IMG/VR virus record: IMGVR_UViG_3300031541_000012 | Span: 1 to 64,000 of that record | Source: a virus | DNA length: 64,000 nt | Direction: 5' to 3' (one strand) | Part shown: piece by piece, positions 13,715 through 63,393 of the stretch | Layout of the letters: the number at the start of each line of letters is the position of its first letter | Position numbering within the stretch: the first letter of the stretch is position 1 | Made by a program: the position numbers and the translations under genes | The notes under the pieces: generated by a model | What the model was told of the DNA's origin: nothing | What the model saw: only the letters and a program-made list of their open reading frames with translations | Databases searched by the model: none

Positions 13715-13758
13715 CAAGTAAAGCGTTTTGCCTTATACTGTGGGCGAACAATAAGGAA
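13711..13758 (+). promoter_or_regulatory. early promoter repeat, copy 6 (variant)
   Basis: TTGACA-17-TATACT, TTTGCC/GGCGAA arms. Confidence 0.75.
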
Positions 13759-13763
13759 TAATC

Positions 13764-14231
13764 ATGCTTGTAGTATTTGATTTGGACGGAACCCTTGCAG
13801 ATGTGCGTCACCGGATGCACTTTATCCGTCCTGACCCAGCAGTAGATCCAGTTACTGGAAAGAAGGTCAAGCGTCGCTTTGATCTGTTCCACCACGCATG
13901 TGTTGATGACACTGTGATCGAGCCTGTGGCTTACTTCTATCGCAAGTTTTGCGCTGACCCTAACGTAACTGTTGTGGTGCTCAGCGGACGTGACTTCGCA
14001 ACATCTGACAAGACCGTACAGTGGTTCAAAGACAACGATTTGCCGCTGCCAGACGAGATGCACCTCAAGCAAGGTGATCAGCATCTGCCAGATGTTGAGC
14101 AAAAGCGTACCCGTGCCAACCTGCTTGAGCGCAAGTACGGACGGCCAATTGATATGGTATTTGAAGACCGTGACCGCGTCGTAGCGATGTGGAAAGAGCG
14201 CGGTACATTTGTATTCAACGTGGATCAATAA
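13764..14231 (+). CDS. HAD phosphatase (PNKP 3'-phosphatase domain-like)
   Basis: VFDLDGTLAD, LSGR, FEDRDRVVAMW. Confidence 0.85.
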   Translation: MLVVFDLDGTLADVRHRMHFIRPDPAVDPVTGKKVKRRFDLFHHACVDDTVIEPVAYFYRKFCADPNVTVVVLSGRDFATSDKTVQWFKDNDLPLPDEMHLKQGDQHLPDVEQKRTRANLLERKYGRPIDMVFEDRDRVVAMWKERGTFVFNVDQ

Positions 14232-31414: not shown

Positions 31415-32032
31415 ATGACACTAGTCCCAATGGTAGTTGAGCGCACCAGCGAAGGTGAACGCGCATTTGACATTTACAGCCGCTTGCTCCGTGACCGCAT
31501 CGTAATGCTCAATGGTCCAGTGGAAGACACTATGGCAAACTTGGTTGTTAGCCAGTTGCTCTTCCTGGAGAGTGAGAATCCAGACAAGGACATTACGATG
31601 TTTGTCAACAGCCCAGGCGGTGTTGTTACCGCAGGACTGAGCATCTACAACACCATGCAGTATATCCGTCCTGACGTCGCCACAGTGGTTACAGGACAAG
31701 CGGCAAGCATGGGTAGCTTCCTAGCGCAAGCTGGTGCTAAAGGCAAGCGCAGTATGTTGCCAGAGAGTCGTCACATGATTCACCGCGTCAGCAGCGGCGT
31801 TCATGGCACCAGTGGCAGCGTTTATGTTCAGGACCTTGAGATGGAAGACATGCAACGCCATCTCGCTGAAAGTCACAACTTGAATGATCGCTTGACTGAG
31901 ATTTACGTCAAGCATAACAGCGCAGGCAAGAAGCTCAAAGAGGTCAAAGAGACCATGAAGTTTGACACCTTCCTCAGCGCCAAAGATGCAGTTGAATGGG
32001 GCTTGGCTGACAGCATTATCGAAAGCAGGTAA
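31415..32032 (+). CDS. clpP: ATP-dependent Clp protease proteolytic subunit
   Basis: LVPMVVE, DIYSRLL, NSPGG, AASMG (Ser), MIH (His), D triad. Confidence 0.95.
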
Positions 32033-42924: not shown

Positions 42925-43993
42925 ATGATTGACATTAACGAAATTGCAGCTACAATAAGTGGAGTTAAGAAAAACCGTAATACTCTTGACTTACTTCTTG
43001 AATTTGAGGGCGTCCTAGATGACCTCAACATTTATGCATATGAAAACTGGATTAAAGGTGAAGTAATTAAAGGCCCAATCATTTCCAAGTATTGGGTTGA
43101 AGTTTACCTTATGTATCCCAAGAAGCACATGCCAAACCCAGTGGCAGCGGAGCGTCTTATTAAACATGGCTGCTATGTATTTTTCCAGGAAGATACACTA
43201 ACCAGCAACGTAAAAATTAAACAGCCGGAGGATTTAGTTCCGGATCCTGATGATCCAGGTAAGCGTAAGCCTGATACAAAAGAAACAGAAGTTTTTGTCG
43301 TTAAAATTGTTATGCCACGCCACCTGCTAACAGATTACAATGTGAAAAAGATCAGCGCGATGACTGGTGAGATTGACCTAGACGATGTTGTTGATGCATA
43401 CGACCAAGGTCTTGATGTAGATAGAAATGCAAGAACTGAAGATGAAGACCAAGAGCAAGAGAACCCAGAAGAAAATTTTTGAGGGTCTCGAGTTCGAGGA
43501 CCTCAAAGGACTAATTGACGATAATGTCTTGATCGACATGCATAAGCCAAAAATTGGCAATGATGAAGATACTGTAGTTGTCGCATTTGACGTCACTTAT
43601 GAAGATCCAGCCAAGGATCTTAGCCAGTTTATTGAAACTGGCGCACTAGAACACCTAGATGTGGAGACTAGCACATCTCCAGACCAAGACGGCACTTGGA
43701 AAGTGTTTGTTGAGTTTATGCGTGATCATGAACTTTACGAAAAAATCGAGGCGTTGCTTGACAGCGTTAGCCAAATAACTAGCCGAGAAGATGGTGCGTG
43801 GACTTATCGCGCTTACAACGTAAAAGAGCCAAAAGAGTTCAACGAAGAAAACTTTAAAAACGATATTATCGACAGTCGTTACGAGTATCGTAAAACGTAT
43901 ATGAGTGATGACAAAACATACGACGAGCCAGTAGATGAGTTGGAAGAAAGCTGGTTGAGTCGAGTAAGAAATTACCAGAAGCTTAATGCCTAA
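42925..43993 (+). CDS. two acidic late hypothetical proteins (42925-43482, ~43427-43993)
   Basis: late promoter TAAATA 42897. Confidence 0.75.
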
Positions 43994-44207
43994 GGAAGAA
44001 ACGCTAACAATGAGCGGCACAGTAATTGAGTGCCTGCCCAATGCAACATTCAAGATTCGCCTCGAAAACGATCATGAAATCTTAGGCATCATTAGCGGAC
44101 GGATACGTAAGTTCAATATCAACATCTTGCTGGGTGACCATGTTGACGTTGAAATCGCACCATATGACCTCAGCAAGGGTCGTATTACCTATAGGCACAA
44201 AAAATGA
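43986..44207 (+). CDS. infA: translation initiation factor IF-1
   Basis: [37 protein letters not shown]. Confidence 0.95.
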
Positions 44208-44737
44208 TTCAATTAGCAAGGCTATTTACACCAAAGTTCTTTAGAGGTCTCCTGTTCGCAGTTGTTCTGCTAGCAGTTCTGCTAGCAGTGGGCGGTACAA
44301 TTTTTGCAGGCTATCAATATGCGACTGGGTTGCAAGACGAAAACACACGCCTCACAACAGAGAACGCAACACTGGAAGGCAACAATGTGCAACTTGAACA
44401 AGCCATTGTTGAACAACAGAACACTATTGCGTCACTAGAGCGTGATATCCAACTGCAAGCTGAAATTTTTAATGAGACCAACGAGCAATTTGAACGCGCT
44501 CGTAACCAAGTTGACAGTCTACGTGAGCGACTTGGTGAACACGAACTGAGTTCACTAGCACTGGCTCGACCAGGACTGGTAGAAAGAGTAATTAACAATG
44601 CAACAGATTCAGTTGGACGCTGTTTTGAGATTGCAGCAGGGGCACCACTGACGGACGCAGAGCTTAATGCTACACTGCCAAGTCAAATCAATAGGGAATG
44701 CCCAGACTTAGCAAACCCTAATTATGGAGGTGATTAA
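44204..44737 (+). CDS. i-spanin (Rz-like)
   Basis: N-terminal TM plus coiled coil, followed by a lipoprotein gene. Confidence 0.7.
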
Positions 44738-45129
44738 TGAAATACATCGTATTTGTTGCGCTCTTAGGTCTAGCAGCATGTGCTAGACCAGAACCTGAGT
44801 CAACTAATCCAGTGGTTATACAAAGTGAACCGATTGCCCGACCATCGCTCAATCTGCCTAATGTGGACCGATATACATCGCGTCCTGTAGAGTGGATTGT
44901 GGTAACTCCAGATAACGTGGATGAAGTTTTTAATGAGATGGAGTCGCGTGGTGAAGATCCTGTCCTGTTTGGCGTCAATGATGAGGGCTATGAAAACATT
45001 GCAATCAATACACAAGAAAGTCTGCGTGTTATCTTACAGCAACAGGCAGTGATTGACGGCTATCGTGAATACTACATTGCAGCAGATGGAAGTATCCGCG
45101 AGCATAACGCAAACATACCACGAGAATGA
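44737..45129 (+). CDS. o-spanin (Rz1-like lipoprotein)
   Basis: lipobox LAAC, Pro-rich region. Confidence 0.7.
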   Translation: MKYIVFVALLGLAACARPEPESTNPVVIQSEPIARPSLNLPNVDRYTSRPVEWIVVTPDNVDEVFNEMESRGEDPVLFGVNDEGYENIAINTQESLRVILQQQAVIDGYREYYIAADGSIREHNANIPRE

Positions 45130-45758
45130 ACCCTTTCAAGGTTTTAAACATAAACCCCACGGATGACAAAATGACCATCCGTCGCGCGTATGTACGTGAA
45201 GCAAAGTTGCACCATCCTGACCAGGGTGGTGACGAAGGGCATTTCCGCCTTATACAAAAAGCGTATGAGGGATTGATCAACAATGATTTTGATGTAGAGA
45301 TCCTAGAAACAGATGTTGCATTGGACCTCAAGGACTTTTTACTTGGATGTACAGCGGTTGCAGTAATCAAGAACGGCGTGTTCAAAGGCACTGCAATTGA
45401 GTTCAAAGTGCCAGCGTACACATACCCTGGTACAGTGCTAGAGTTTCACGACTCTGGATTGACAGACAAGCTCGTTCGTGTTAAATTATTTGAAGCTAAA
45501 CAAGATCACTACACGAGGCTTGGATCAAGCATAGTCTCCAAGCATAAAATAAATATGCTTGAGGCAGAACTCGGCAAAGAAATCGAAGTAACGAACTTCG
45601 ACGATAAATCATATAAAATAAGAGTATCGCCAGAGACCACCGCAGATCGTTTGATCTATAATTTTGAAGGTGCAGGTTTTTACGACAAGCTAACGAAAGT
45701 CCGTGGTAATTTCACGGTCGTAGTAGAAGTAGACAAGAGAAGGTTATTTGATGTCTGA
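45126..45758 (+). CDS. DnaJ-domain co-chaperone
   Basis: NPFKVL, IRRAY, HHPD, DnaJ C-terminal-like region. Confidence 0.85.
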   Translation: MNPFKVLNINPTDDKMTIRRAYVREAKLHHPDQGGDEGHFRLIQKAYEGLINNDFDVEILETDVALDLKDFLLGCTAVAVIKNGVFKGTAIEFKVPAYTYPGTVLEFHDSGLTDKLVRVKLFEAKQDHYTRLGSSIVSKHKINMLEAELGKEIEVTNFDDKSYKIRVSPETTADRLIYNFEGAGFYDKLTKVRGNFTVVVEVDKRRLFDV

Positions 45759-47985
45759 AGAGAGATTACAGCGCATTGTGCAGATGGCATTTCAAGAAGC
45801 AATTAGCCGTCAACATGAATATGTGACGATTGAACATTTGCTTATTGCAATCCTAGGCGATGCAGATATTCTCCAAGTCCTAGAGGACATGGGTATAAGC
45901 AGCCAAAGCATTCTTGATGATGCTAAAGATTATTTAGATACAGATATCGAAAAAATGGCTGACCAAAGCAATGGTGCGAAAAAGACTGTTGCACTAGAGC
46001 GCGTGTTCCAACGTGCGGTTGCGCAAGGCTACTTTGTTGGCCGCTCAATTGCAGATCCGCTAGACGTGTTGGGCAGTATCCTCTCAGAGGAAAACAGCCA
46101 CGCCGCTTTCTTTTGTAACACCCACGGCCTCACAAAAGACTCACTGACTGAAAATATTGCAGACATCATTCAAGATGATGGCATGGCAACTACCAACGGT
46201 GAAGAAGCGCCAACAGGACGCCGTAAGCGCCAAACTGCACTTGAGCAGTATTGTGTCAACCTCAATGAGCTGGCAGAAGAAGGCAAGGTGGACGATCTCA
46301 TTGGACGTGATTGGGAAGTGGAAAGCCTTGTGCAGACACTTGCCCGCCGTAAAAAGAACAACGCTATGATGGTTGGTGATCCTGGTGTTGGTAAAACTGC
46401 AATTGCAGAGGGACTTGCCAAGCGCATCATTGAAGAAGATGTCCCTGAGACAATGCTTGGTAAAACTATCTACAGCCTGGATATTGGCTTGCTACTAGCA
46501 GGCAGCAAATATCGCGGAGACATGGAGGAACGCCTCAAGGACGTTCTCAAAGAGCTCGAGACTAAAGAGAACAGCATCCTCTTTATCGATGAGATCCATA
46601 TGATCCTTGGAGCAGGGGCGGGCGGCAACAGTGCAATGGATGTTGCAAACTTGCTCAAGCCAGCTCTACAGCGCGGAACGCTGCGTTGTATTGGTTCCAC
46701 AACCGTGGAAGAGTTCCAAGAAAAGATCGAAAAGGATGCAGCACTCAAGCGACGTTTTGAGCGTGTTAACGTAACTGAGCCAAGTGTTGAGGATGCAAAG
46801 GCGATCCTCATCAACAGTATGCCAGCTTACGAACTATTCCACAACATGGGTATTGACAAAGAGGCAGTTGAAGCCGCTGTTGAACTCAGTGTCAAGTATA
46901 TCCATAACAAACGACTACCAGACAAAGCCTTCGACTTGGTTGACAGTGCTTTTGCCCGCCAGCGTACATACCCAGACGAACAACAGGTAGACGTTATCAC
47001 TAAGAATTTGATTGAGCGCGAAGCATCACGCCTAAGCCGTATCCCGCTCAGCATCATCACAACAAACGACGAAACATCAGAAGAGGTACACGACATTGAA
47101 GCCGGTCTACAGCTAACAGTATTTGGCCAAAACCCAGCAGTGGAAACACTTGCTAGTGCTGTTTACGTCGCACAGTCAGGATTGAACGATCCTGAAAAGC
47201 CGCTAGGCTGTTACCTGTTTACTGGACCAACTGGTGTTGGTAAAACAGAAACTGCAATTGGCCTCGCTAACCTACTGGGTGTCAAGCTTGTGCGTTTTGA
47301 CATGGGTGAGTTCATGGAGAAGCACACAGTGAGCCGCCTTATTGGTAGTCCTCCAGGCTATGTAGGATATGGTGATGGTAAAGCCGGTGCTGGTGAGCTT
47401 ATCACTGAGATTGAGAATAATCCTAATTGTGTCCTGCTATTGGACGAGGTCGAGAAAGCACACGAAGACGTGCTCAACGTACTCTTGTCACTGATGAGCA
47501 CAGGCATGATATCCAATAGCAGCGGTAAAGAGGTCAATGCTAAAAACATTATCCTTATCATGACCAGCAACCTTGGTGCAGCAGATGCAGAAAGAAACAA
47601 GATTGGTTTCGGTGCTACTGACAACACTGATGCAAGTACAGAAGCCGTCAAGCGTTTCTTTACACCTGAATTCCGTAACCGCCTAGACGCCGTGGTGCCA
47701 TTTAGCAAGCTTGACAAAGAAATTGTTATGCAGGTTGCAGACAAGTTCCTCAAGGTTGTTAAGGAGAGCGCAGCAGAGCGCGGCTACAAACTAAAGTGGA
47801 ACAAGAGTGTCCTCAAATGGCTCAGCCAGGACGGGCGTGGATTCGATCCTGCGATGGGAGCAAGACCAATGAAGCGGGCAATCTTCGATCACATCAAGAA
47901 GCCCCTTGCAAGGCAGATGTTGTTTGGTAGCGTTGACAAGACGATTACCCTAAAGATTGAGGATGACGAAATTAAATTCCAGTGA
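45751..47985 (+). CDS. clpA: ATP-dependent Clp protease ATPase subunit
   Basis: Clp N domain HEYVTIEHLL, two AAA modules (GDPGVGKT, GPTGVGKTE), no middle coiled coil. Confidence 0.92.
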   Translation: MSEERLQRIVQMAFQEAISRQHEYVTIEHLLIAILGDADILQVLEDMGISSQSILDDAKDYLDTDIEKMADQSNGAKKTVALERVFQRAVAQGYFVGRSIADPLDVLGSILSEENSHAAFFCNTHGLTKDSLTENIADIIQDDGMATTNGEEAPTGRRKRQTALEQYCVNLNELAEEGKVDDLIGRDWEVESLVQTLARRKKNNAMMVGDPGVGKTAIAEGLAKRIIEEDVPETMLGKTIYSLDIGLLLAGSKYRGDMEERLKDVLKELETKENSILFIDEIHMILGAGAGGNSAMDVANLLKPALQRGTLRCIGSTTVEEFQEKIEKDAALKRRFERVNVTEPSVEDAKAILINSMPAYELFHNMGIDKEAVEAAVELSVKYIHNKRLPDKAFDLVDSAFARQRTYPDEQQVDVITKNLIEREASRLSRIPLSIITTNDETSEEVHDIEAGLQLTVFGQNPAVETLASAVYVAQSGLNDPEKPLGCYLFTGPTGVGKTETAIGLANLLGVKLVRFDMGEFMEKHTVSRLIGSPPGYVGYGDGKAGAGELITEIENNPNCVLLLDEVEKAHEDVLNVLLSLMSTGMISNSSGKEVNAKNIILIMTSNLGAADAERNKIGFGATDNTDASTEAVKRFFTPEFRNRLDAVVPFSKLDKEIVMQVADKFLKVVKESAAERGYKLKWNKSVLKWLSQDGRGFDPAMGARPMKRAIFDHIKKPLARQMLFGSVDKTITLKIEDDEIKFQ

Positions 47986-48811
47986 ACTAAGGGCACTAAT
48001 TGAGGGTGCAGGCATCAAGTACAAGCCTGCACCTAAAATCTTCTACCCCAAAGAGGGTGGCCTCCCCTACAAAGTAGAGTTACGCCCCAAGCATCGTGGC
48101 AAAGGACTGGGCGGTGTTAGTGGTAAGCGCAGTTGTCAAATTGACATCACCAACCCTATAAAGGCGCGAGAAGAGCTTGCAGCGTTCAATGATCGCATGG
48201 ACAAAATCATATCCAATGTCGAATACAGACGTGAGATATGTAATTTTGTTAAACGACTCCCACAAGTAGAATACAAAACACGTATGGGCGGAGATAACAA
48301 CCTGTTTTATTTCCGTGATCCTGAATTGGTTATGGTATTGGTCAATCGTTATCATGATGTCATTAACAGTGTAACTGGACCAATTAATGATACACATGAA
48401 GAACGTATTGGTGAACGTAATGTGCAGATGCGCAAGACGCTTTACTTCAACAAATACCGCTATTACCTAGAGTTTGAACGTAGTGACGAGTTTGTTACTC
48501 GTACAGCACCACGTCTACTTGAAGCACTTAATCATATCGAGTCTGGTAATTGGCGTGAACACAAGCTGACTAGTATCATTAAATTCTACGAAGCGCACGG
48601 CAGCATAAGAGGCAACAGATCTGCAACTGCTACTATTATAGGCGGTCAGCCAAATGTAGCACCAGCAGCATTCAATATGCCTTACTCATTCCCACCTCGT
48701 GCAGTAGCACTTTATCTGGTTGATCCAGAGGACTATGTCTACCTCAAGCTATTAGCAGCAGAGCATATCAAATCTAACCATGAACTTGTGCTTTTTGACG
48801 AGTTAACCTAG
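47963..48811 (+). CDS. hypothetical protein with KL-type motif
   Basis: LYLVDPEDYVYLKLL near C-terminus. Confidence 0.7.
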   Translation: MTKLNSSELRALIEGAGIKYKPAPKIFYPKEGGLPYKVELRPKHRGKGLGGVSGKRSCQIDITNPIKAREELAAFNDRMDKIISNVEYRREICNFVKRLPQVEYKTRMGGDNNLFYFRDPELVMVLVNRYHDVINSVTGPINDTHEERIGERNVQMRKTLYFNKYRYYLEFERSDEFVTRTAPRLLEALNHIESGNWREHKLTSIIKFYEAHGSIRGNRSATATIIGGQPNVAPAAFNMPYSFPPRAVALYLVDPEDYVYLKLLAAEHIKSNHELVLFDELT

Positions 48812-49573: not shown

Positions 49574-49927
49574 GTGCAGGAGGATAACGTGAATAGAAAC
49601 GGATGGTTCTGGTTAGCACCAGAATATTTCAACAGGTGGAGAGTATTTCCACGCGCCTTTATTGTATTTTATTTTTGGCTATGTATGGAAACAGCAATGT
49701 GGTTTATGGGCTTACCTAATCCAGGAGCCGCCCAAGCTGCATTTGCTAGTGCAATTATCTCTGCAGGTGCTGCCTGGTTTGGCTTATATGTAAACAGTGG
49801 TTCATTTAACTCTCGTGCATCAACACCACCGACAGCAGTACAGCAACCGCAGCCAGTTGTTATGCCGCCACCAGTACAAACAGAAACTGACCCTCGCGGC
49901 GTCAAGGAATATCAGGTAAAGGGCTAA
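49574..49927 (+). CDS. two-TM late membrane protein (holin candidate)
   Basis: TAAATA 49541; WRVFPR then two TM helices. Confidence 0.5.
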   Translation: MQEDNVNRNGWFWLAPEYFNRWRVFPRAFIVFYFWLCMETAMWFMGLPNPGAAQAAFASAIISAGAAWFGLYVNSGSFNSRASTPPTAVQQPQPVVMPPPVQTETDPRGVKEYQVKG

Positions 49928-50493
49928 TGAGCGAACACTACATGCGTCTGCTTACAGACGTTGAGCTTAATCCAAAGCAAAAGCAAACGTGGTATCGTGT
50001 GGTCGAGAAGTTTCTAGGTGCAGAATATGCAACACAGCCTACAAACTTTCTCGACACACTTACCAGCCAACGCGCTGAACTAGAGGGGGACGAAAACTTC
50101 CCTTACGTCTACGTTGTTTACCTAAGTGACGATATTGATGCTACTCTTGCAGAACAGATTGTTGCACTATGGAACAAGATCTATCCACGTGACTTTGAGA
50201 TTGAAAGCAGTGCTGAGTATGATGCTGATTGTTGTGACCATTGCGCCGTTGAGATCGACGATGCGATGCACGAAGAGATCCAACGTCGTGCTAGCAAGTT
50301 CCTACACAACCGCTGGGTAGAAAGCCAAGTTGACGCTGGCTGGCGTTACGGCACAAGCATCAGCGAAAGCGATAAGACCAACCCACGTCTACGCGACTGG
50401 GATAGCTTGCATGAAGATTATCGCCGTGTCCTGGAAATGGACCGTGAGCAAGCTACTAAATTTTTCAAGACATATCCACACCTTTTTGTTTGA
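49927..50493 (+). CDS. RyR-domain protein
   Basis: LHNRWV.....GWRYG......KTNPRL..WD.L. Confidence 0.7.
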   Translation: MSEHYMRLLTDVELNPKQKQTWYRVVEKFLGAEYATQPTNFLDTLTSQRAELEGDENFPYVYVVYLSDDIDATLAEQIVALWNKIYPRDFEIESSAEYDADCCDHCAVEIDDAMHEEIQRRASKFLHNRWVESQVDAGWRYGTSISESDKTNPRLRDWDSLHEDYRRVLEMDREQATKFFKTYPHLFV

Positions 50494-51152: not shown

Positions 51153-52184
51153 ATGTTTGACCAATCCGTACAACGTGTAGGCTTTGCCTGCAAATATATG
51201 CATCCTGACCAGACACTTCCGCCCAAGAAGCTGAAGTCCATACAGGGTCGCATGACTGAGAGTGTTACTACCAATGCGTGGATGCAGCGCCAGACACACC
51301 GCGATGCCTACGACAAGCTGTGGACACTTATCCAGCACAACACACAAGCTGTTTACAATCTTATACAGTATGTTGGCGGCTTGCCTGCAGGACAGCGCAT
51401 GGTACGACTTGGCAGCGATCAGTTACCCTTCTACACACTTGACCCCTGGCGTGACTTCTACAAACGCAATGACGTTCGTAACTTTCTCGAGCGCCAGTAT
51501 ATACGTGCAGGCGATCTTGCGCGTGAGCATGACGTACGCCTATCCATGCACCCTGGTCAGTTTACAGTGCTAGCTAGCGACAATGACGATGTCGTTGAGC
51601 GCAGCCTAGAGGAGATGGAATACCACACTGACATTGCACGTTGGATGGGCTATGGCAACATGTTTGGTGAGTTCAAGATCAACGTACACCTTGCTGGCCG
51701 CCGTGGTGTTGACGGCTTCCGTGCTATACACAATCGCTTGTCGCCCGAGCTGCGCAACATGATGACTGTGGAGAATGACGAGTATGCTAGCGGGCTTGAC
51801 GACATTATCCAGCTTGCTGACGACTTTGCACTTGTATTTGACACACATCATCACTGGATACACAGCAACGAGTTTATCGCACCTGACGACGACCGCTTCC
51901 AGCGTGTTATCGAGTCCTGGCGTGGTGTGCGTCCTGCAATGCACTATTCTGTATCGCGAGTCGAGTACCTGGCTGACGTTGACGACGCCACACTGCCCGA
52001 CCGTGACTTGCTCAAGGAGGCTGGCTATGCTAGCAACAAACTACGTGCACATTCGGACCTCTATACACATACAGCCAGCAACGACATGATTGCTGCATTT
52101 TGGCCACATGCTGACATTATGGCCGAAGCCAAGCACAAGAACCTAGCGAGTACTGCGCTATACAACTATCTTATGGAGAACTGA
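51153..52184 (+). CDS. uvsE: UV damage endonuclease
   Basis: RVGFACK, RLSMHPGQF.VLAS, VEND, FD.HHH, HYS, AHSD, M.EAK.K. Confidence 0.93.
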   Translation: MFDQSVQRVGFACKYMHPDQTLPPKKLKSIQGRMTESVTTNAWMQRQTHRDAYDKLWTLIQHNTQAVYNLIQYVGGLPAGQRMVRLGSDQLPFYTLDPWRDFYKRNDVRNFLERQYIRAGDLAREHDVRLSMHPGQFTVLASDNDDVVERSLEEMEYHTDIARWMGYGNMFGEFKINVHLAGRRGVDGFRAIHNRLSPELRNMMTVENDEYASGLDDIIQLADDFALVFDTHHHWIHSNEFIAPDDDRFQRVIESWRGVRPAMHYSVSRVEYLADVDDATLPDRDLLKEAGYASNKLRAHSDLYTHTASNDMIAAFWPHADIMAEAKHKNLASTALYNYLMEN

Positions 52185-53220: not shown

Positions 53221-53817
53221 ATGGGTAGACCTATTAACAAACGCTTTATTGGTGATAATCCAGGAAGCATCAAAGTTTCACATCACTTCCGTGTTGGTGA
53301 AAGTGAAGTAGCAGGTGGCGATGACACATACATCGTTAGCCAGCGCTCAAATACAAAATTCCTAATTTCAGACACATCAGAAGGCTGGAGCGAAGTTCTC
53401 GTGCTAGCTGACAAAGATGCAGGCTCACTTGCAGAAGGCGAGTTCCGCATTGCAGCAACTGATGAACTAGGTGCAGACGTAAACGCAATCCGCCTTTATA
53501 ACCGTACAATACGTGTCACAGGTCCTAAGAAGGTTAAGTGGAGCATTGATGCACCTGAGTCACAGGCAATCACAGGCATCACCCAAGCTGATCCAGCAGT
53601 TGTTACAGTTGCAGACACATCAGTTTACAATGACGGCGACACTGTTACAATCAGTGGTGTTGTTGGTATGACTGAGATCAACGGCCTCAGCAGCACAATT
53701 ACCATTCTTAATGCAACAACCTTTGAGCTCGACACAATTGACTCAACAGGCTTTACTGCATACACAAGCGGCGGTACAGTAAGTGTTGGCGGAAGCATTG
53801 ACGACCAAGACGCATAA
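53221..53817 (+). CDS. late structural protein with C-terminal E1-FCCH-like beta domain
   Basis: MGRPINKRF N-terminus; ITGITQADPAVVT...GDTVTISGVVGMTEING. Confidence 0.7.
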   Translation: MGRPINKRFIGDNPGSIKVSHHFRVGESEVAGGDDTYIVSQRSNTKFLISDTSEGWSEVLVLADKDAGSLAEGEFRIAATDELGADVNAIRLYNRTIRVTGPKKVKWSIDAPESQAITGITQADPAVVTVADTSVYNDGDTVTISGVVGMTEINGLSSTITILNATTFELDTIDSTGFTAYTSGGTVSVGGSIDDQDA

Positions 53818-53839: not shown

Positions 53840-53885
53840 ATGAAAACCCTGTCGCTGCTAAATATAATAAAGGCAGGGTTTTCAT
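53840..53885 (+). promoter_or_regulatory. late promoter inside 12-bp hairpin abutting start codon
   Basis: ATGAAAACCCTG/CAGGGTTTTCAT around TAAATA 53859. Confidence 0.75.
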
Positions 53886-55478
53886 ATGACAATCACCAAA
53901 GCACAACTCAATAATCTTGAGCAAGCAGCTGACAAAGTATTTGGCAAACTAGGACTCGATATTGAGTTTACACGACATTTCCTTGACAGAGCAAACGACG
54001 AACGCAACAGCAAGCCGATCACAATCAAAGAGCTGGCTGAATTATTCGTAAAAGAGTACAGGCGTTGGGGCAACAAAATCGCAAAGATGGACTTTGACGC
54101 CGAAGCAGTCATGAAAGACCTCACTAGCCAGATTAACATTCCATTTGTTATCAATCCAGATGGCAACGGAAAAGACCTAGTAGCGAAAACAGTTATGCGT
54201 AAAAAGAATTTCACATCACCAGATCCAACACTTCCAGTAGAAAGTGTAACCGAATCACGTGACTTGTGGTACTTACTAGTTGACGGCGATGAATACAATG
54301 AGTGGGGCACTGGTTCAGTGATTGGCACTAAAAACGAAATGGGTAAATTTGCTAAAAAAATTCGACGAGAATACAGAAAAGAAAATGGACGTGATCCAGA
54401 TATTATGTTTGTACGAGCAGAGCCAAAACGAATTAAAAAACTACGACCGCATAAAAGCGTCAATGAAGAAGGACACGATAAAAACCTTTACTATGTTCAA
54501 CCAGATGGCGAATGGAAAAAGGGTGGCGATGGTCGTTCAAAAGGCCGCAAGCGCAAGAACATTCCCAAGGGAGCAAAAATCGTGGAAAGGAAAGTAAAAG
54601 AAGACAGCGTTTGCTGGGATGGATACGAAAAGGTACCAGGCAAGAAGGACTACGAAAAAGGTAGTTGCCGCAAAAAGAACAAAAACGAAAATAGTTATCC
54701 CAAACCTATTTCAGGGAGAGATATTACAGACTCTGTAACCCAAGCAAATGTAAAAGTTCTTGGGCAAAGCGTCAAAGAAGAAAAGCATGGTGCGAAAAAA
54801 GGCACACAAGCTAAAGGCAAATCACCTACACCAAAGAAAAGCCGTCCAACAGCAGGTAGTGAAACACCACACCCAATGCGTGGTAAGCTAGTTGGCGAAA
54901 ATGCAAAGCTAACTGAGCGCTGGAAGCATAATATCTGGGGCGGTGAGACGGCAGACGGTGTTAAATTTAAGGTTGATAAACTTCAAGGTAAAAATCCGCG
55001 TTATCTTGTTCGCTACAATAATGATGATAAGGCAGAGTTTGACAATCTTATGGTTTATTACGATGATTTTGACACCGTAATGGACATTGTCAACCAAAAC
55101 TTTGATGCTGCCGTTGCTGGTGGTGAAAAGTTCCGTCGCACTGGACGCACAGCACACAAAGGCAGCTATGAATTCATTAAGCCCGTCCGTGAATCACTTA
55201 CTCTTGAAGAACAATGCCTACTGCAAAAAGGTGCATGGGAAGTAGAGCAGATCCGTAACTCAGTAACCGAAGCAATTCGTGATCCACGTGAACTTATCCT
55301 TCAAAAGGCATTGGAATATTTAGACAAGATGGTCGCAAGCCGTGGCAGCAAGCAAGACGTTGGCGGTTATGCATTTGACATTGCCCGCAGTTTTGACCTA
55401 CGTGATATTGCAACTGCAAAAGAGCTAGCCGACATGTACCATGAATGGAAGGGCATCAAGCCCCATGCGCTACGCTGA
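53886..55478 (+). CDS. modular lysine-rich protein, putative internal head polyprotein
   Basis: modules separated by SVTE, SVNE, KVKE, SVKE, KLTE, PVRE; N-terminal FTRHFLDR module. Confidence 0.6.
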   Translation: MTITKAQLNNLEQAADKVFGKLGLDIEFTRHFLDRANDERNSKPITIKELAELFVKEYRRWGNKIAKMDFDAEAVMKDLTSQINIPFVINPDGNGKDLVAKTVMRKKNFTSPDPTLPVESVTESRDLWYLLVDGDEYNEWGTGSVIGTKNEMGKFAKKIRREYRKENGRDPDIMFVRAEPKRIKKLRPHKSVNEEGHDKNLYYVQPDGEWKKGGDGRSKGRKRKNIPKGAKIVERKVKEDSVCWDGYEKVPGKKDYEKGSCRKKNKNENSYPKPISGRDITDSVTQANVKVLGQSVKEEKHGAKKGTQAKGKSPTPKKSRPTAGSETPHPMRGKLVGENAKLTERWKHNIWGGETADGVKFKVDKLQGKNPRYLVRYNNDDKAEFDNLMVYYDDFDTVMDIVNQNFDAAVAGGEKFRRTGRTAHKGSYEFIKPVRESLTLEEQCLLQKGAWEVEQIRNSVTEAIRDPRELILQKALEYLDKMVASRGSKQDVGGYAFDIARSFDLRDIATAKELADMYHEWKGIKPHALR

Positions 55479-55665
55479 TCTAATAGAAAATTTCAAGGAC
55501 GACAAAGTTAAAGGCAATAGCCGTCCAGGCAGAGCAAAACGCGCTGGTGTTAATTGCTCTAAGAGTGTGAGTGCTCTACGTAAACAAGCAAGCAACAGTT
55601 CAGGCGAAAAGCAGAAGATGGCACATTGGTGTGCAAATATGAAAAGCGGTAAGAAAAAGAAATGA
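55465..55665 (+). CDS. small basic putative internal head protein
   Basis: MRYADLIE N-terminus. Confidence 0.65.
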   Translation: MRYADLIENFKDDKVKGNSRPGRAKRAGVNCSKSVSALRKQASNSSGEKQKMAHWCANMKSGKKKK

Positions 55666-56504
55666 AAGTTCGTGATATCGTTAATGAAATGCGAGCAAAT
55701 ACTTCGCCACTTAGCAAACGCCTAACCCATGATGTAGGCGATTTGTATGGCGTTATCAAGCAAATTGCTAGCGGTGATATCAGCCGTTATCTCAAGCGCA
55801 TTGATCCAACACAGGTCAAAGCATCACAAAGTTGGCTAGACGACTTTGGTGGCGGTGATCCAGTATTCCATGATGTACCTGAAGAATTTTGGGAGTATCC
55901 TATCATAGCGGATCTAGGTGATGAAATGGTAATTATTGACGGACATCACCGTATAGACCGCGGTTCTGACCAAGCACTGGTATTCCCTGTCCAACTTGCT
56001 GAAAATACAGAAATACAAAAGCCTCATCCAGACGACACACTAGGCGTAGAGCGCAAGCACATGCCACAAGTGCATCGTGACCATTACCCAGAACTTATCA
56101 AATACCTCGAAGACCATGGCAACAAATTTAGCCACGGCGAAATGCATGCCAAAGAACTCCGTGCTACACAAAAGGAGTTCAGTGATAAAGGCGTGCGTAA
56201 GATGATGAAAACAGGCGGGCGTCCAAGTGACAGTGCTGGTAAAGCATCCAAGCCACTCATCGTCAGTAGCGACAACTATATCCTTGATGGTCATCATCGT
56301 TGGCTAGCAGCCTGGAATCAAGATGATGTTGTGCCAGTTATGAAAGGCACATTGCCTATCAAGAAACTATTTCAGTTGGTGAACGATTTCGAACACACAA
56401 CGTATAAGGACATACATGAGGAGGTAAGTTCAAATGAAAAAGAAGTTGGAAGAAGAAGACATCCTAGCAACAGAAGGGCCAATGAACGCCGTAGCAATGG
56501 ATGA
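55662..56504 (+). CDS. tandem ParB/Srx-like domain protein, putative internal head protein
   Basis: MKVRDIVNE; IIDGHHR and ILDGHHRW. Confidence 0.7.
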   Translation: MKVRDIVNEMRANTSPLSKRLTHDVGDLYGVIKQIASGDISRYLKRIDPTQVKASQSWLDDFGGGDPVFHDVPEEFWEYPIIADLGDEMVIIDGHHRIDRGSDQALVFPVQLAENTEIQKPHPDDTLGVERKHMPQVHRDHYPELIKYLEDHGNKFSHGEMHAKELRATQKEFSDKGVRKMMKTGGRPSDSAGKASKPLIVSSDNYILDGHHRWLAAWNQDDVVPVMKGTLPIKKLFQLVNDFEHTTYKDIHEEVSSNEKEVGRRRHPSNRRANERRSNG

Positions 56505-57158
56505 TGCGCGAGCATACCTAGGGCTTGAAAATCGAACACACCTCACACCAGTAGAAGAAAAGCAGCTAAGAGCTAAAAAGAAAAAGATAGTAACAGCGTC
56601 GAAAAAGATGGATCGCCGTGTAAACCGCGAATTGACACGCCGCGCAGACCGCTTGGAGTAATAAATACCAATATGAAAATCCAGGATATCATAACAGAAA
56701 CCTCAGCAGGAAGCATTGGCGCAGTTGCAGCACCACTTGGTAGTGGTGATCCTGCCGCAAGCATTTACGGCAAGAAGAAAAAGAAAAAGAAAACCGAGAT
56801 GATCAAACGTTCCGCTACCAATGAAGATGTATTTTTGCCATTTATAGGCGGATCGATTGTATTCTCTCTTATTCTACTATACATTGCTACCTCAGGGGCC
56901 TGGCAGTGGTATAAAAAGAACAAATACAAATCTGAAGTTAAAAGAACAATTAAAAGAGTCATCGAAGAAATTAAAACAGATCCTAAAAAGCGTGAAATAC
57001 TCGATGATCTTCAACACAATTACATAAAAAACGGAAGATTCCGTCCTGGTATGAAAAATGCAGGACTCAAGAAAATTCACGACCTATTAGATGGGCAACC
57101 ACAAGACATGATTCAGCAAATGGTGTCATCTATCAAAACAACAAGAACGGAGAAATGA
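56434..57158 (+). CDS. two late proteins (56434-56661; 56673-57158 with MKIQDIITE leader and TM)
   Basis: TAAATA 56662. Confidence 0.65.
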
Positions 57159-58315
57159 CGATGGTCAGAGTAGTAACTAATCGTTATCAAAGAGTACATG
57201 GCAAAAAGCCACGCGGGACTGGACAGTGGATGTTCACATCCAACGAATATGGTGACATTGACTTTAACGATGACACGACATTCTTCCAGGCACCGGTCAG
57301 CCTACCACTAGCAAAAGCAGCGGCTCACGCTAAGCGTTGGGGCAAAGAAAACGGACACACGGCTATTTACGTTGCTGAAGAAGGATTGAATGAAATCCAC
57401 TACGGTACAGAAGATGAATGGAAAGCAAAAGTGAAAAAGACAGCAGACGCAGCACGCAAGGGCATGACTAAGAATCACGAAAAGCGTAAGGCGGCAATGG
57501 GAGAAGATAAGAAACCATTAGGCGGCAAGTTTAAAGTTGGACAGCGTGTTCTACCAAGCAAGAGCAGTCAAAAAGTAATGACTATCACAGGGTTTGACCG
57601 TGTTAAATATATGGGCAAGATGAAAACATTTGCTGATGGTAAGGACGATCAAGGTCGCAACATGCGTCGTCCACTAAGCACACTTGTCGCTATTAACGAA
57701 TCCAAGCAGCTAACAGAAGGCGTGCTAGACGAAATGGATGATGACGGCTTCATGGCAAAGCGTCAACTATACGATCTAGCAAAGTATTCAATCCAGCTAC
57801 ATAAGATGATTCAAGACTCAGACAACTTAGAACCTTGGGTGCAAGCAAAGATTACAAAAGCAGCAGACTATATTGACACAGTCAAGCACTACCTAGAATA
57901 TCAGGATGTACGTAGCGATGAAGCACATGCGGATTTTGGCGACATAGATGACCTAGCGCCAGCAGTTGATGCTATGGCTCCAGACATGCCAGTTGAACAG
58001 GAAATGATGGAATTCCAAGATGAAGGATTTTCAGGCGATGACTTGTTACAACATGCAGTGTTGCGCGGCATTGTTGGTCCTGATGCTGTTCATGATCCTG
58101 CAATGCAGGGCGTTGCAGATGACACAGCAGAGTGGTATTTTGCTGACGCTGAAGAAATTGGTAGCAGCGATATCTCAATTGCACTCAAGTCATTTGCACG
58201 TGATTGTGTTGCACAGGGTTGCAATCTAAACGGCGCTAATGCAGAACGTTATGTGACAGAAGTAAAGGCTGCAAACATCTATAGCCAGATGATGAAGCCA
58301 TTGAAAGGCAAGTAA
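57155..58315 (+). CDS. modular protein, putative internal head polyprotein
   Basis: GLNE, AMGE, AINE, QLTE junctions; LEPWVQAKITKAADY module. Confidence 0.6.
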   Translation: MTMVRVVTNRYQRVHGKKPRGTGQWMFTSNEYGDIDFNDDTTFFQAPVSLPLAKAAAHAKRWGKENGHTAIYVAEEGLNEIHYGTEDEWKAKVKKTADAARKGMTKNHEKRKAAMGEDKKPLGGKFKVGQRVLPSKSSQKVMTITGFDRVKYMGKMKTFADGKDDQGRNMRRPLSTLVAINESKQLTEGVLDEMDDDGFMAKRQLYDLAKYSIQLHKMIQDSDNLEPWVQAKITKAADYIDTVKHYLEYQDVRSDEAHADFGDIDDLAPAVDAMAPDMPVEQEMMEFQDEGFSGDDLLQHAVLRGIVGPDAVHDPAMQGVADDTAEWYFADAEEIGSSDISIALKSFARDCVAQGCNLNGANAERYVTEVKAANIYSQMMKPLKGK

Positions 58316-58316
58316 T

Positions 58317-60446
58317 ATGAAGATCAGGGACGTAAAAGGCAAAGTAAAAGAAGGACGGGAGAGACTTCCAGATATTGATCGTGAGCATCAGAAAAAGGTC
58401 AAAGAAGGCTTTTGGAGTGGTGGCAAGTATCACACAATGGGCACAGCATATTATTTGATTGTTCCGCGTACAGATGGCCGCCTTGATATGTCACAATGGT
58501 CAGTAATGTCATATGAAGACACACCTGGTAGCAATCCACTGCACCTCAGCAAGATGCTAGACAAACACAGTGAATCACTTGGCTGGGATGGCTGGGACGT
58601 ACAGGCATCATGGAATGGTGACATTGACCAAGAGATTGCTCGGTTAGAAAAGCAGCGTGATGATTATGCGGATAAGAAAGATTCTTTCCCAACACAGTAT
58701 TATGATGGTCTAAACGGTGCTAAAAAGCTACACCAGGCTAAAGAAATCATGCAGACAGCAGACGAAGCCAAGCCTGACAAAGTTGAAGAAGCAAGTAGCC
58801 CAATGGGTGTCATCAATAAGTTCTTGGATAAAAAGAAATCTAAAGAACGTCGCAGTGCAGACCTAGCAAAGAACCCACACAAAGTTGGACAACTCAAGAG
58901 CGATGAAGTGGAATTCCAACGCGACCTAGAAGCAGTACGCAACGGTGAAGCTGATGCAAGCGAAATGGCAGAGAAGTGGGGACCGCGTGGTGGCGCATTC
59001 CTTAATTTTATCAAGACAGATACGGTTGATGAAAATATCAAAGGCTGGAAGAACGCTGCAAATGACATCGCAAAGCATCGTGCGAAAAAAGGTAAAAACG
59101 TTAAACTAGTCAGGCTCAAGAAGGACGGCAGTGAATGGATATTTGATCCAATCACAAAGAAAACAACAGTTAAAGAAGCTATGCCAAATATGGGCAAGAA
59201 GGTCATCATTGCATACAAAGGCAAAAAAGTTGGCGAATTTGCTGTTCAGCCTAATGCTCGTGTACACCACTTTGATCAAGAGCTTCGCAAACTAAGCGGA
59301 CGTATTGACATGAGTGATTTTGAGCGTACTCAGGTAGCACGTGACCTAGCAGCAGGCAAGACAGTTAAACTACCAAGCGGATACGCAATGCAGCAACAAG
59401 ATACTCGTCCGCGTGAAATGGAAAGCGTACAAGAAGACGGACGCGAAACAGCTAGTGCCGCAGTAAAGCGCAGTGAAAAGGCACGTCAGCGCAACATCAA
59501 CAAGGCAAAGAGCATGATGAAGCGTGGGTTTGATGCTGAAACCGCAGCCAAGGAGCACGGTGTTCGTGCTAAGGATCTCGAAGAGTCTACAGGCAGCTTT
59601 AAGGTAGGCGATGTTGTTATCCCTAACCGTGGTCCGCACAAGGGACAAAAGCACGAAGTGATCCATTGCTTTGATGATGGTAGCTGCAACGTTAAGCCAA
59701 TTGGATTGTCACCCAACCGTATCCGTTACGGAATGGGTGCAGCCAAAGCACAGCCTGAAGATTTACAACTTGCAGAAGCTAGCTGGCCAACACAGGCAGA
59801 CAATACGCCAGACCACACACCAACAAATAGCCCAACGGTTTCAACCAGCTCACATAATGATCGTGTGTTCCGTATTGCTGACCTTAGACTTGAATACAAA
59901 AAGCTAACAGGTAAATCCGCACCACGTGATCCTAGTCTCGATGTTGAAGACTACGAAAAGATGGTTGCTGATGCTCGCGAAGCACTTGGCGAAAATGGCA
60001 AAGGACTGTACCACAATGTTAACAAGCGCAAGAAGACAGGAACCAGCCGTCCAAAAAGCCATCCAAAAGCACCAACTGATAAGGCGTGGAAGGATGCAGC
60101 TAAAACAGCAAAAGAGTCAACAGAAATTACTCTAGAAGACACACAAGACTTCCACGAAGAGTTTGGTTACTTAGGCTACAGCCTAGACGAAAACGACTTG
60201 TTTGAAGCTGATTACCAGGGACGCAAGGTCAAGCTTAACAAGCCAATGGCTGGTGACGTTAAGAAGTTCAAAGTTTACGTTAAAGATCCAAAGACAGGCA
60301 ATGTCAAGAAAGTCAACTTTGGCCAAAAGGGTGTCAAGATCAAGAAGAACAACCCAGAGCGTCGTAAGAGTTTCCGTGCTCGTCACAACTGCGACAACCC
60401 AGGGCCAAAGACCAAAGCACGTTACTGGTCATGCAGAAAGTGGTAA
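58317..60446 (+). CDS. 709-aa modular lysine-rich putative internal head polyprotein
   Basis: MKIRDV leader; about 11 [VL]-x-E junctions; C-terminal YQGRKVKLNKP...YWSCRKW module. Confidence 0.65.
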   Translation: MKIRDVKGKVKEGRERLPDIDREHQKKVKEGFWSGGKYHTMGTAYYLIVPRTDGRLDMSQWSVMSYEDTPGSNPLHLSKMLDKHSESLGWDGWDVQASWNGDIDQEIARLEKQRDDYADKKDSFPTQYYDGLNGAKKLHQAKEIMQTADEAKPDKVEEASSPMGVINKFLDKKKSKERRSADLAKNPHKVGQLKSDEVEFQRDLEAVRNGEADASEMAEKWGPRGGAFLNFIKTDTVDENIKGWKNAANDIAKHRAKKGKNVKLVRLKKDGSEWIFDPITKKTTVKEAMPNMGKKVIIAYKGKKVGEFAVQPNARVHHFDQELRKLSGRIDMSDFERTQVARDLAAGKTVKLPSGYAMQQQDTRPREMESVQEDGRETASAAVKRSEKARQRNINKAKSMMKRGFDAETAAKEHGVRAKDLEESTGSFKVGDVVIPNRGPHKGQKHEVIHCFDDGSCNVKPIGLSPNRIRYGMGAAKAQPEDLQLAEASWPTQADNTPDHTPTNSPTVSTSSHNDRVFRIADLRLEYKKLTGKSAPRDPSLDVEDYEKMVADAREALGENGKGLYHNVNKRKKTGTSRPKSHPKAPTDKAWKDAAKTAKESTEITLEDTQDFHEEFGYLGYSLDENDLFEADYQGRKVKLNKPMAGDVKKFKVYVKDPKTGNVKKVNFGQKGVKIKKNNPERRKSFRARHNCDNPGPKTKARYWSCRKW

Positions 60447-60449
60447 AGA

Positions 60450-60776
60450 ATGCAGTTAACTGAGATCAAGGAAAAGATCCGTAACACTCGTATGCCACGC
60501 CGCATATATGATGAAGTTATGGCTCAAGAAGTTGACACAGTTGGAAAAGACAGTCAACAAGAAAAGCACCAGCTGGCAGATCAGATGCTACGTGGCCAGC
60601 CAAGCGGAGCCATTGTTAAGGTTCCGCTTACAAAGGAAGTACAGAGCTATTTGCTTTACAAATCACTTCCAAACATGATTGACATTGCTAAAGACAATAT
60701 GAATCGTCGACTAGTAAATAGTTTACAGAAGTTCCAGGCACGTTTACATGCCAAGTTGGTAGGAGTTGAAAAGTAA
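60450..60776 (+). CDS. putative internal head protein
   Basis: MQLTEIKE N-terminus. Confidence 0.6.
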   Translation: MQLTEIKEKIRNTRMPRRIYDEVMAQEVDTVGKDSQQEKHQLADQMLRGQPSGAIVKVPLTKEVQSYLLYKSLPNMIDIAKDNMNRRLVNSLQKFQARLHAKLVGVEK

Positions 60777-61399
60777 TGTTAATTGAAGACATCATTAATG
60801 AAGGACCAGGTGACGGGCTGCCAAAGGTCGTCCTGTATCCAGGTCGTTTTCAGCCACCACACATTGGACACATGAAAGCATGGAAACATCTTAAAGGTGA
60901 ATTTGGCGATGCTAAAATTGTCACCAGTGATAAGGTAGATCCGCCACGCAGCCCATTCAACTTCCAGGAAAAGAAAGCACTGCTAAAACATGCAGGTGTT
61001 CCTGAAAATGCTATTGTGCAAGTTAAAAACCCATACCTTGCAAACGAGATTGTCGATAAAATGGAAAAGGAACAGTTTGTGCTGATTTTTGCAATAAGTG
61101 AAAAGGACATGGACGAAGATCCACGCTTTACATTTAAACCAAAGAAGGACGGGAGCCCAAACTACTTCCAGCCATACAAGCAGAATAGAGGCAAACTAGA
61201 GCCTGCAAGCAAACACGGATATATCACAACCGTTCCTACGTTCCCGTTCAATGTCGCAGGTGAGCCAATGCGTAGTGCTACTGAGTTCCGTGCCAATTTT
61301 GCTAAGGCTGATGAACAAAAGCAAGCGCAAATGATCAAGGACCTATATGGCAAGTATAGCGATAAGGTACACGCGCTATTGGCAGACAAAATTGTCTAA
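60776..61399 (+). CDS. HIGH-family nucleotidyl/cytidylyltransferase with capsid-targeting-like leader
   Basis: MLIEDIINE; YPGRFQPPHIGH, PF.F.EK, SATEFR. Confidence 0.8.
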   Translation: MLIEDIINEGPGDGLPKVVLYPGRFQPPHIGHMKAWKHLKGEFGDAKIVTSDKVDPPRSPFNFQEKKALLKHAGVPENAIVQVKNPYLANEIVDKMEKEQFVLIFAISEKDMDEDPRFTFKPKKDGSPNYFQPYKQNRGKLEPASKHGYITTVPTFPFNVAGEPMRSATEFRANFAKADEQKQAQMIKDLYGKYSDKVHALLADKIV

Positions 61400-62928: not shown

Positions 62929-63393
62929 ATGCCACTGAAACCTACCACTCTGGATGATCTTGAGCTGTTCCAATACGAACGGGGCGGCAAGTATTACAAG
63001 ACTTGGACTTGGAATGATACTCTGCACAGTGTGGAGGATCATCCAAGTCTTATCATTCGTGACGGTCAGGGCGCGATCATTGAGCAACAATGGCACACAC
63101 ATGGTATGCGCCACCGCGATGGTGACAAGCCAGCCTGGATCAAAGATGACGTGATGCTGTTTTACAAGAATGGCGAGATGCATCGTGATGACGGTCCTGC
63201 ATGGGAAGGTATTACAGAGCAAAAATGGTATCGCCACAATCAGCTACATCGTTTAGATGGGCCCGCTGTTGAGGGGCTCAAAATAGCCCCACAGTGGTAT
63301 CTTGATGGCTATGCTATAACTATGCAGCAATGGGGCGATGATCCTAGGGTAGATAATGAACTTTTTGTGTATTTTAAGCTAATTTATGATTGA
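62929..63393 (+). CDS. HRxDGPA-repeat protein ending in KL motif
   Basis: HSVEDHPS, HRDGDKPA, HRDDGPA, HRLDGPA; ends NELFVYFKLIYD*. Confidence 0.75.
   Translation: MPLKPTTLDDLELFQYERGGKYYKTWTWNDTLHSVEDHPSLIIRDGQGAIIEQQWHTHGMRHRDGDKPAWIKDDVMLFYKNGEMHRDDGPAWEGITEQKWYRHNQLHRLDGPAVEGLKIAPQWYLDGYAITMQQWGDDPRVDNELFVYFKLIYD

Follow-up and report, generated by a model that had tools for sequence, protein, structure and literature searches.

Why should a run of neighbouring phage genes open with nearly the same short leader ending in glutamate (Glu), and why should the long proteins among them repeat the end of that leader at intervals along their length? The question is raised by positions 53,886 to 61,399 of the window, that is, the whole stretch of DNA that we analysed, which is the opening 64 kb of a linear viral fragment 159,002 bases long and with an estimated completeness of 44% (IMG/VR record IMGVR_UViG_3300031541_000012). 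An earlier note had read this block as a late set of polyproteins targeted to the capsid, with modules separated by sites of the prohead-protease type, [VLI]xE; the open reading frames (ORFs) and coordinates that it gave are correct, and its observation as a whole is confirmed here. We consider it probable that the proteins of the block are packed into the head and cut internally at these joints. Among cultured phages, the nearest counterparts of the window's ClpA belong to Sinorhizobium phage Phosso (45%) and Agrobacterium phage Atu_ph07 (43%), which likely places the phage near the Rak2/Atu_ph07-like jumbo myoviruses, whose heads have T4-like gp20, gp21 and gp23 (PMC6102473 Table S3).

All six leaders that had been listed occur in the sequence, as do all 23 listed [VLI]xE sites (11, 8 and 4 in the 709-, 530- and 386-aa ORFs, respectively; Table 1). 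The leader MRYADLIE corresponds to a start at the second Met (55465) of the frame beginning at 55441, with a product of 66 aa, and to the previous inventory we add a 75-aa gene (56434–56661) and, within the 709-aa ORF, a further border between modules at E600. Together, the three long ORFs contain 18 instances of [VLI]xE[GASND], against 6.0 ± 2.3 expected from shuffled sequences (none of 2000 shuffles reached 18); the corresponding ratio in the remaining 175 proteins of the genome is 1.14. Control motifs in the same ORFs were flat ([VLI]xD and [VLI]xK) or slightly raised ([VLI]xQ, 15 vs. 8.9, p = 0.025). Among the 110 proteins of at least 150 aa, the 709-aa protein ranks first for the motif (z 5.8) and the 530-aa protein 12th (z 1.9). 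The leader pattern, which was composed after the block had been seen, is present in six of the nine block genes and in none of the 175 others. The modules had been described as basic and of 30–120 aa; many pieces are indeed basic, but their length ranges from 5 to 198 aa and several are acidic, such as residues 31–158, 488–559 and 601–630 of the 709-aa protein (isoelectric points, pI, of 4.9, 5.0 and 4.1) and 189–386 of the 386-aa protein (pI 4.2).

Comparison with homologs places the borders of the modules at these sites. Homolog searches retrieved 3609, 938 and 107 proteins, of which 120, 120 and 107 were listed, including the query's own record in each list, and nearly all the listed homologs match the query only in part. 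Using 60 proteins with less than 50% mutual identity, selected from 242, we counted the alignment ends lying within 2 residues of [VLI]xE, and found 111 of 474 internal ends (36 expected) and 110 of 515 internal starts (39 expected); six motifs with another third residue gave 0.5–1.6 fold, with xD, xK and xR at 0.6–0.9 fold. Likewise, the motif was found at 87 of the 202 distinct junctions of clean insertions of at least 25 residues (24 expected; maximum of 35 in 300 random draws), or at 119 when M, F and T were also permitted, and at 23 of 50 junctions in a fresh set of 106 proteins (6.7 expected; controls 1–3), these counts being drawn from related proteins whose junctions are partly non-independent. 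When individual borders were projected onto homologs, a site was present in 34/34 for E338 of the 530-aa ORF and in 51/51 for E188 of the 386-aa ORF, with weaker values for E123 of the 530-aa ORF (44/91) and E630 of the 709-aa ORF (25/73).

The modules also change partners. Modules 374–487 of the 709-aa protein occur between sites inside P0099, an ortholog of the 386-aa protein, and the 66-aa gene is equivalent to the last module of P0128, an ortholog of the 530-aa protein. Among 21 tested pieces of the long ORFs, four (124–194 of the 530-aa, 81–117 of the 386-aa, and 240–287 and 488–559 of the 709-aa ORF) had no homolog covering 70% of their length, and the rare inner modules 124–194 and 240–298 of the 530-aa protein are thinly sampled in the homolog sets. 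Two modules appear as well in T4-like phages (Melnitz, phiM12, HTVC008M, C48C1 and immuto), often in proteins with short Glu-ending leaders, which we take to resemble T4's own leader. The last module of the 709-aa protein is also shared by small phages of Pelagibacter and Roseobacter and by a spindle-shaped archaeal virus (MT375519, MT375529, OQ401623, BK067786), and it is therefore not tied to T4-type heads.

Searches with the whole 386- and 530-aa proteins gave no close loci, and the close relatives L043, L044 and L045 were reached via alignment and with a closer homolog as query. The three share the gene order ClpA ... tail-like gene, 530-like, ParB-containing chain, small leader gene, 386-like, 709-like, 108-like and 207-like, except that the 108-aa match is missing in L043 and the 709-aa match in L045, and the block lies between ClpA and an amidase. 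At the position of the 66- and 280-aa genes, L126 and the three relatives carry chains of 663–1365 aa with GNAT, DUF6934, HD, CCA-type nucleotidyltransferase and 5'-nucleotidase domains. The earlier note had attributed the cutting to a protease of the gp21 type, and the lineage does have one: gp21 and gp23 are encoded by all five long genomes tested that contain the 1–119 module of the 530-aa protein, and the probable substrates share the motif, with scaffold, core protein and capsid start being rich in it in all four long genomes in which these genes were read and likewise in Atu_ph07, where the gp21 homolog is gp204.

For Atu_ph07, positions 15,000–419,400 of 490,380 were compared with the published virion proteome (PMC6102473 Table S5), for which 123 of the 140 rows, single-peptide rows included, were mapped by annotation with all masses agreeing, the other 17 being outside or at the edge of the stretch. 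The leader pattern derived from the window is carried by 8 of the 123 virion proteins and by 10 of 533 other ORFs (p = 0.01), the latter being our own gene calls, with possible false genes among them. With Trp permitted, a post hoc modification, the figures are 22/123 and 10/533, and 11 of these 22 proteins are the neighbours gp53–gp63, mostly paralogs. This tandem family (MF403008 39484–52173) comprises around ten paralogous leader-bearing virion proteins, with gp53 and gp63 having further modules.

The leader thus goes with virion presence in this cultured relative, where some multi-module proteins also run at fragment size. Considering proteins with at least 4 peptides, at least 20 kDa and a main band from 3 to 13, with band sizes partly set by hand, the median density of internal [VLI]xE was 1.81 per 100 aa in 14 proteins peaking far below their mass and 1.21 in 39 others (p = 0.005). 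For instance, gp63 (41.4 kDa) peaks with proteins of ca. 29 kDa, and a cut at E119 predicts pieces of 12.4 and 28.0 kDa; gp482 (31.7 kDa) and gp483 (33.7 kDa) peak in the ca. 15-kDa band, with predicted pieces of 15.6 + 15.1 and 16.3 + 16.9 kDa and with internal joints at E146 (or the immediately preceding Glu) and E147, respectively; and gp53 (87 kDa), which reads as a leader followed by five modules, peaks in the ca. 21-kDa band. In gp63, the GNAT module has a counterpart in the syntenic L045 polyprotein (E 8e-18), each of them ending at a site; gp483 is similar to the DUF6934 modules found in the L043 chain, and the gp53 kinase matches P0168. In the accessible parts of PMC6102473, these four products are described as hypothetical structural proteins and no peptide-level cut site is given.

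Expression of the block is likely late, as had been claimed, judging from a conserved TAAATA and a conserved blocking hairpin. The hairpin preceding the 530-aa gene (−21.1 kcal/mol, z −4.6) is retained in all three close relatives (L043:9946-10010, L044:9865-9929, L045:9937-10001), with changed letters that still pair (z −5.0 to −5.4; the four hairpins were folded singly). From the available text of PMC3014915, the same layout is used by T4 genes e, soc, 49 and I-TevI for late-only translation and, by analogy with gene e, the hairpin with its TAAATA is likely a late-only expression switch, which could double as the terminator of the upstream gene. Scans for sigma-70 promoters and terminators gave results at chance level.

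What the modules might do was approached through their folds and families. The model of module 1–119 has a predicted local distance difference test score (pLDDT) of 82, with confidence falling below 50 at residues 119–123, the joint; Glu119 is invariant in 47 sequences, as are His31, Asp34, Arg35, Asp38, Arg40 and Arg105. In Foldseek searches with this module, the top seven rows were RelE/ParE/HigB chains, the best with E 0.032 and a template modelling score (TM) of 0.42, and none at E ≤ 0.001. The model is weakly like RelE/ParE toxins and T4 RegB, and an RNase activity is possible, albeit unproven. A search of PDB sequences with the same module retrieved only designed beta-trefoils, which we judged to be chance matches, and the ESM Atlas gave no family name to the two conserved modules. 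For the full-length 709- and 530-aa proteins, its models reached predicted template modelling scores (pTM) of 0.22 and 0.28, such low values being as expected of loosely linked pieces and equally of poor models. A RebB Pfam match in the 530-aa ORF was rejected, because it covers 16 residues and lies below the cut-off; a DUF5754 match to the very basic last module of the 709-aa protein is also sub-threshold, and most of the remaining modules had no family in Pfam and PHROGs scans. The start of the 161-aa protein resembles the module at the end of gp53 (E 8e-4), a low-complexity match that we take as a lead only.

Sigma-70 region 4, zeta-like kinase and GNAT modules were found in further homologs (60 proteins scanned). 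In L126, positions 11498-15148 encode a 1216-aa chain with ParB-like, HD, CCA-adding-type nucleotidyltransferase and 5'-nucleotidase domains and Glu joints between them, a candidate tRNA-repair and nucleotide-signal kit. By sequence, then, the putative cargo is mixed, with small basic peptides and small folds in the window, and nucleotidyltransferase, GNAT, HD, CCA-adding, 5'-nucleotidase, kinase and sigma-region-4 domains across relatives. Cytidylyltransferase- and NMNAT-like proteins have been reported in several cyanophage virions, according to the accessible portion of PMC10665884. This mix suggests that part of the cargo serves in early host take-over and counter-defence; that a good share of the window's own modules serves in such conflicts is close to an even call, leaning slightly to the negative.

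What is observed comprises the motif, the leaders, the exchange of modules at [VLI]xE, the synteny and the gp21/gp23 head of the relatives; from these we infer loading, cutting, retention and ejection along the following lines. Late transcripts would yield chains of interchangeable modules joined at [VLI]xE, which the leaders of six genes would dock on the prohead core; the 530- and 386-aa proteins would be loaded by another route, perhaps through their conserved end modules or a partner. During head maturation the gp21 homolog would cut the exposed joints, sparing the motifs buried in folds, and the freed modules would remain in the head and enter the next cell with the DNA. Since the end of a leader and an internal joint are the same signal, a module may be a lone leader gene in one phage and a link of a chain in another; and, with no more than three or four residues required at a joint, recombination there can add or drop a module without harm to the rest.

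Several results weigh against packing and internal cutting. For the phage of the window this reading is built on sequence and on relatives, and gp21 (PF03420) had no match in the incomplete fragment, nor in five short fragments (0/5), both results being uninformative. The 386-aa ORF ranks only 43rd of 110 for the motif (z 0.6), which is background, so that the claimed excess stands for the three long ORFs together, and mostly for the 709-aa ORF, and fails for this one. The leader is missing from the 530- and 386-aa ORFs and, therefore, the idea that one targeting signal loads a whole polyprotein fits only the 709- and 280-aa ORFs. Glu lacking the hydrophobic residue is also raised at alignment ends (1.4–1.5 fold), and the strict site is missing at 115 of 202 and 27 of 50 insertion junctions. 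None of the Atu_ph07 proteins in the compared stretch matches a window protein at E ≤ 1e-4, the link being via relatives; the leader-bearing gp54, gp196 and gp394 migrate at their full size or higher, the leaderless terminase gp109, gp42 and gp475 also shift, and the gel slices are coarse, with many proteins smeared over many bands. Genome-wide, TAAATA lies upstream of 13 of 183 genes, with 8.1 ± 2.8 expected and hence no significant enrichment, and the part of PMC10665884 available to us cautions that enzymes such as those found with cyanophage virions may co-purify with them.

The alternative that survives best, and which we nevertheless consider unlikely, accepts that the proteins are packed and cut and makes the products structural: core filler or DNA-neutralising peptides that aid head building or packing and then mostly leave the head or stay idle in the cell, like T4 gp22, gp67 and gp68. 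In T4, gp21 breaks the core proteins up into numerous fragments (PMC9026906, as far as accessible), many modules of the window are short, with a pI of about 10 and without family, and the acidic, core-like gp200 and gp213 of Atu_ph07 also run small. However, the relatives have their own scaffold and core genes beside the protease, whereas the block lies by ClpA and the amidase; its modules are conserved across phage groups, one of them folds confidently, and whole enzymes fill the same slots in relatives. Moreover, the fragment-sized signal of Atu_ph07 was found in purified particles.

Quite improbable, in our estimate, is that the chains remain uncut and are packed and work whole, the joints being relics of gene fusion in which the tails of leaders were kept. 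Fusion alone would leave a Glu motif at each joint and hence the same junction statistics, and a module can indeed be either a lone leader gene or fused, as in the 66-aa gene and P0128; in addition, the two-domain gp54 runs whole and, in the accessible text of PMC10052503, 13 of 14 mapped cuts in SPN3US only take off N-terminal propeptides. Relics would hardly account for joints that are usually trimmed to the last three or four residues of the leader and kept over long distances (the 47 sequences with Glu119, and the 34/34 and 51/51 projected borders), or for the peaks of gp53, gp63, gp482 and gp483 at fragment size, and an exposed motif in the prohead would be hard to spare. As for the very improbable case that the motif is the by-product of a DNA feature, short A-rich look-alikes serving as recombination joints for proteins that need not be in the head, a few joints do have near repeats of 15–17 nt (families D1 and D6) and Val codons differ slightly at sites (p = 0.04), but all four Val and several Leu codons are used there, the share of GAA is not different (330/404 vs. 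3269/4173 elsewhere, p = 0.13), and leader ends, scaffold and capsid starts carry the same motif. The varying synonymous codons indicate that the constraint at the joints is mostly on the protein and not on the DNA, and micro-homology may aid shuffling without causing it.

Table 1. Features of the block in the window, with the [VLI]xE sites of the long ORFs
Feature	Positions	Strand	Remarks
Hairpin, 14 pairs	53840..53885	+	Loop holds TAAATA (53859-53864); spans ribosome-binding region of 530-aa gene
530-aa mosaic protein, no leader	53886..55478	+	First module, 299-338 and 463-530 conserved, swappable modules between; sites E123, 194, 239, 298, 338, 344, 436, 462
Module 1-119 of 530-aa protein	53886..54242	+	Compact alpha/beta fold (predicted); phrog_23027; terminates at invariant Glu119
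66-aa basic protein	55465..55665	+	Leader to E8; in relatives, module fused behind Glu site in long proteins
280-aa protein	55662..56504	+	Leader and two ParB-like modules, split at E114; enzyme chain in its place in relatives
75-aa basic ORF	56434..56661	+	Lys-rich leader-like start, to E7; 3' end retained in L043-L045
TAAATA, late-promoter-like	56662..56667	+	Position retained in three relatives
161-aa protein	56673..57158	+	Leader, Gly/Ala-/Lys-rich peptide (54-60-aa gene in relatives), extra stretch with hydrophobic segment
386-aa mosaic protein, no leader	57155..58315	+	Swappable modules 1-75, 81-117, 118-182; acidic conserved end 189-386; sites E80, 117, 182, 188
709-aa mosaic protein with leader	58317..60446	+	About ten modules; last, 631-709, very basic, weakly DUF5754-like, widespread in marine phages; sites E12, 30, 158, 239, 287, 373, 423, 487, 559, 625, 630
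108-aa protein	60450..60776	+	Leader to E8; conserved in relatives
207-aa HIGH-family nucleotidyltransferase (cytidylyltransferase-like)	60776..61399	+	9-residue leader; PF01467 E 3e-8

The surroundings of the block deserve mention in their own right. Genes for ClpP-like, IF-1-like and DnaJ-like proteins, named by eye, and for ClpA lie 5' of it (31415-32032, 43986-48811), and we speculate that a phage ClpA adjoining cargo genes might assist the unfolding or loading of cargo. The same side contains a 188-aa protein with a RyR domain (49927-50493; PF02026, E 7.5e-10), conserved in L044 and L045, a UvdE UV-damage endonuclease (51153-52184) with 80% identity in L043 and L044 and, just 5' of the block, a tail-like protein with an E1_FCCH domain (53221-53817), which is duplicated in L043 and whose start is resembled by those of the Atu_ph07 virion proteins gp466 and gp498. 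After the amidase there is a repeat-containing protein (62929-63393), with four tandem paralogs in L045 (17384-18898). Elsewhere in the fragment (ca. 99000-133700), a run of around thirty genes on the minus strand precedes the baseplate genes; many of them have Cys-rich starts like those of radical-SAM proteins (by eye), and the run is perhaps involved in fibre or surface modification.

If packing and cutting of the block proteins are borne out, the principle of the three internal proteins of T4 would be broadened into a cargo system that is both large and modular. Mosaic phage proteins now listed as hypothetical, which number in the thousands (3609 and 938 partial homologs), would acquire a reading rule, by which they are split at the joints and each piece becomes a candidate injected protein. 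It would also account for the recurrent nucleotidyltransferases and kinases in cyanophage virion proteomes, and it suggests a natural route by which a single gene could supply a phage head with several proteins; Atu_ph07, with its four named proteins, is a cultured test bed for the central claim. More broadly, we tentatively propose, with the scales tipped somewhat against us, that wherever the head is of the T4 type, in 140-kb marine myoviruses as in jumbo phages like Rak2 and Atu_ph07 and across the range between them, the head protease serves the phage as a polyprotein protease, such that any module flanked by Glu joints is packed, then released and injected, resulting in a library of hundreds of early effectors, mostly of unknown function, reshuffled against host defences. 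In the open literature we found no account of cargo polyproteins jointed by head-protease sites, a scope that does not extend to papers under subscription or to proteomes like those of phiM12 and Syn9, and neither such leaders nor internal cuts are mentioned in the accessible parts of PMC9964418, PMC7318152, PMC5259590, PMC7824862 and PMC13326640.

Among known systems, polyvalent proteins (PMC5512222, Iyer et al. 2017, in its available sections) share unrelated domains in one chain, mosaicism among relatives, a proposed co-injection with DNA, and GNAT and nucleotide-handling domains. Chains of this style are found in the relatives L126 (ParB-like, HD, CCA-type and NT5C), L044 and L045, and few modules of the window have an assigned activity. 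Their processing, however, is proposed to be by zincin-like metallopeptidases, whereas here a head-protease motif lies at the joints and is accompanied by a capsid leader; in those sections the word 'prohead' appears only in the title of a reference, and Pfam scans of the block and of 60 homologs gave no zincin-like metallopeptidase, MuF or ArdC. The ejection proteins of phiKZ and SPN3US, which are cut by gp175 and gp245, are likewise head proteins of jumbo phages with several cuts per chain after a short x-x-Glu, but their cuts degrade long propeptides and leave one mature protein, the motif is A-x-E and the lineage is separate (PMC10052503, accessible text). In the T4 core proteins gp22, gp67 and gp68, too, each chain has many gp21 sites; most of the resulting fragments leave the head and their genes belong to the head cluster, whereas the relatives of the block encode such genes separately, and the block itself lies outside that cluster, with conserved and mobile modules. 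The Atu_ph07 proteins gp53, gp63, gp482 and gp483 share a leader and modules delimited by the same motif, including GNAT, kinase and DUF6934 modules in common with relatives of the block, and are present in virions. Finally, IPI, IPII, IPIII and Alt of T4 share the short N-terminal leader ending in hydrophobic-x-Glu, a gp21/gp23-type head and small, basic cargo that varies among phages (PMC9026906, PMC7411985, as far as available). Pfam and PHROGs scans of the block revealed no homology to these four, and tblastn matches were only to marine and soil phages. T4 internal proteins lose only an end propeptide and give one product per gene, whereas the chains of the block have up to about ten modules with internal joints, are shuffled between genes and in two cases lack the leader. 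By analogy, the block likely works as the internal proteins of T4 do, but in the form of shuffled polyproteins.

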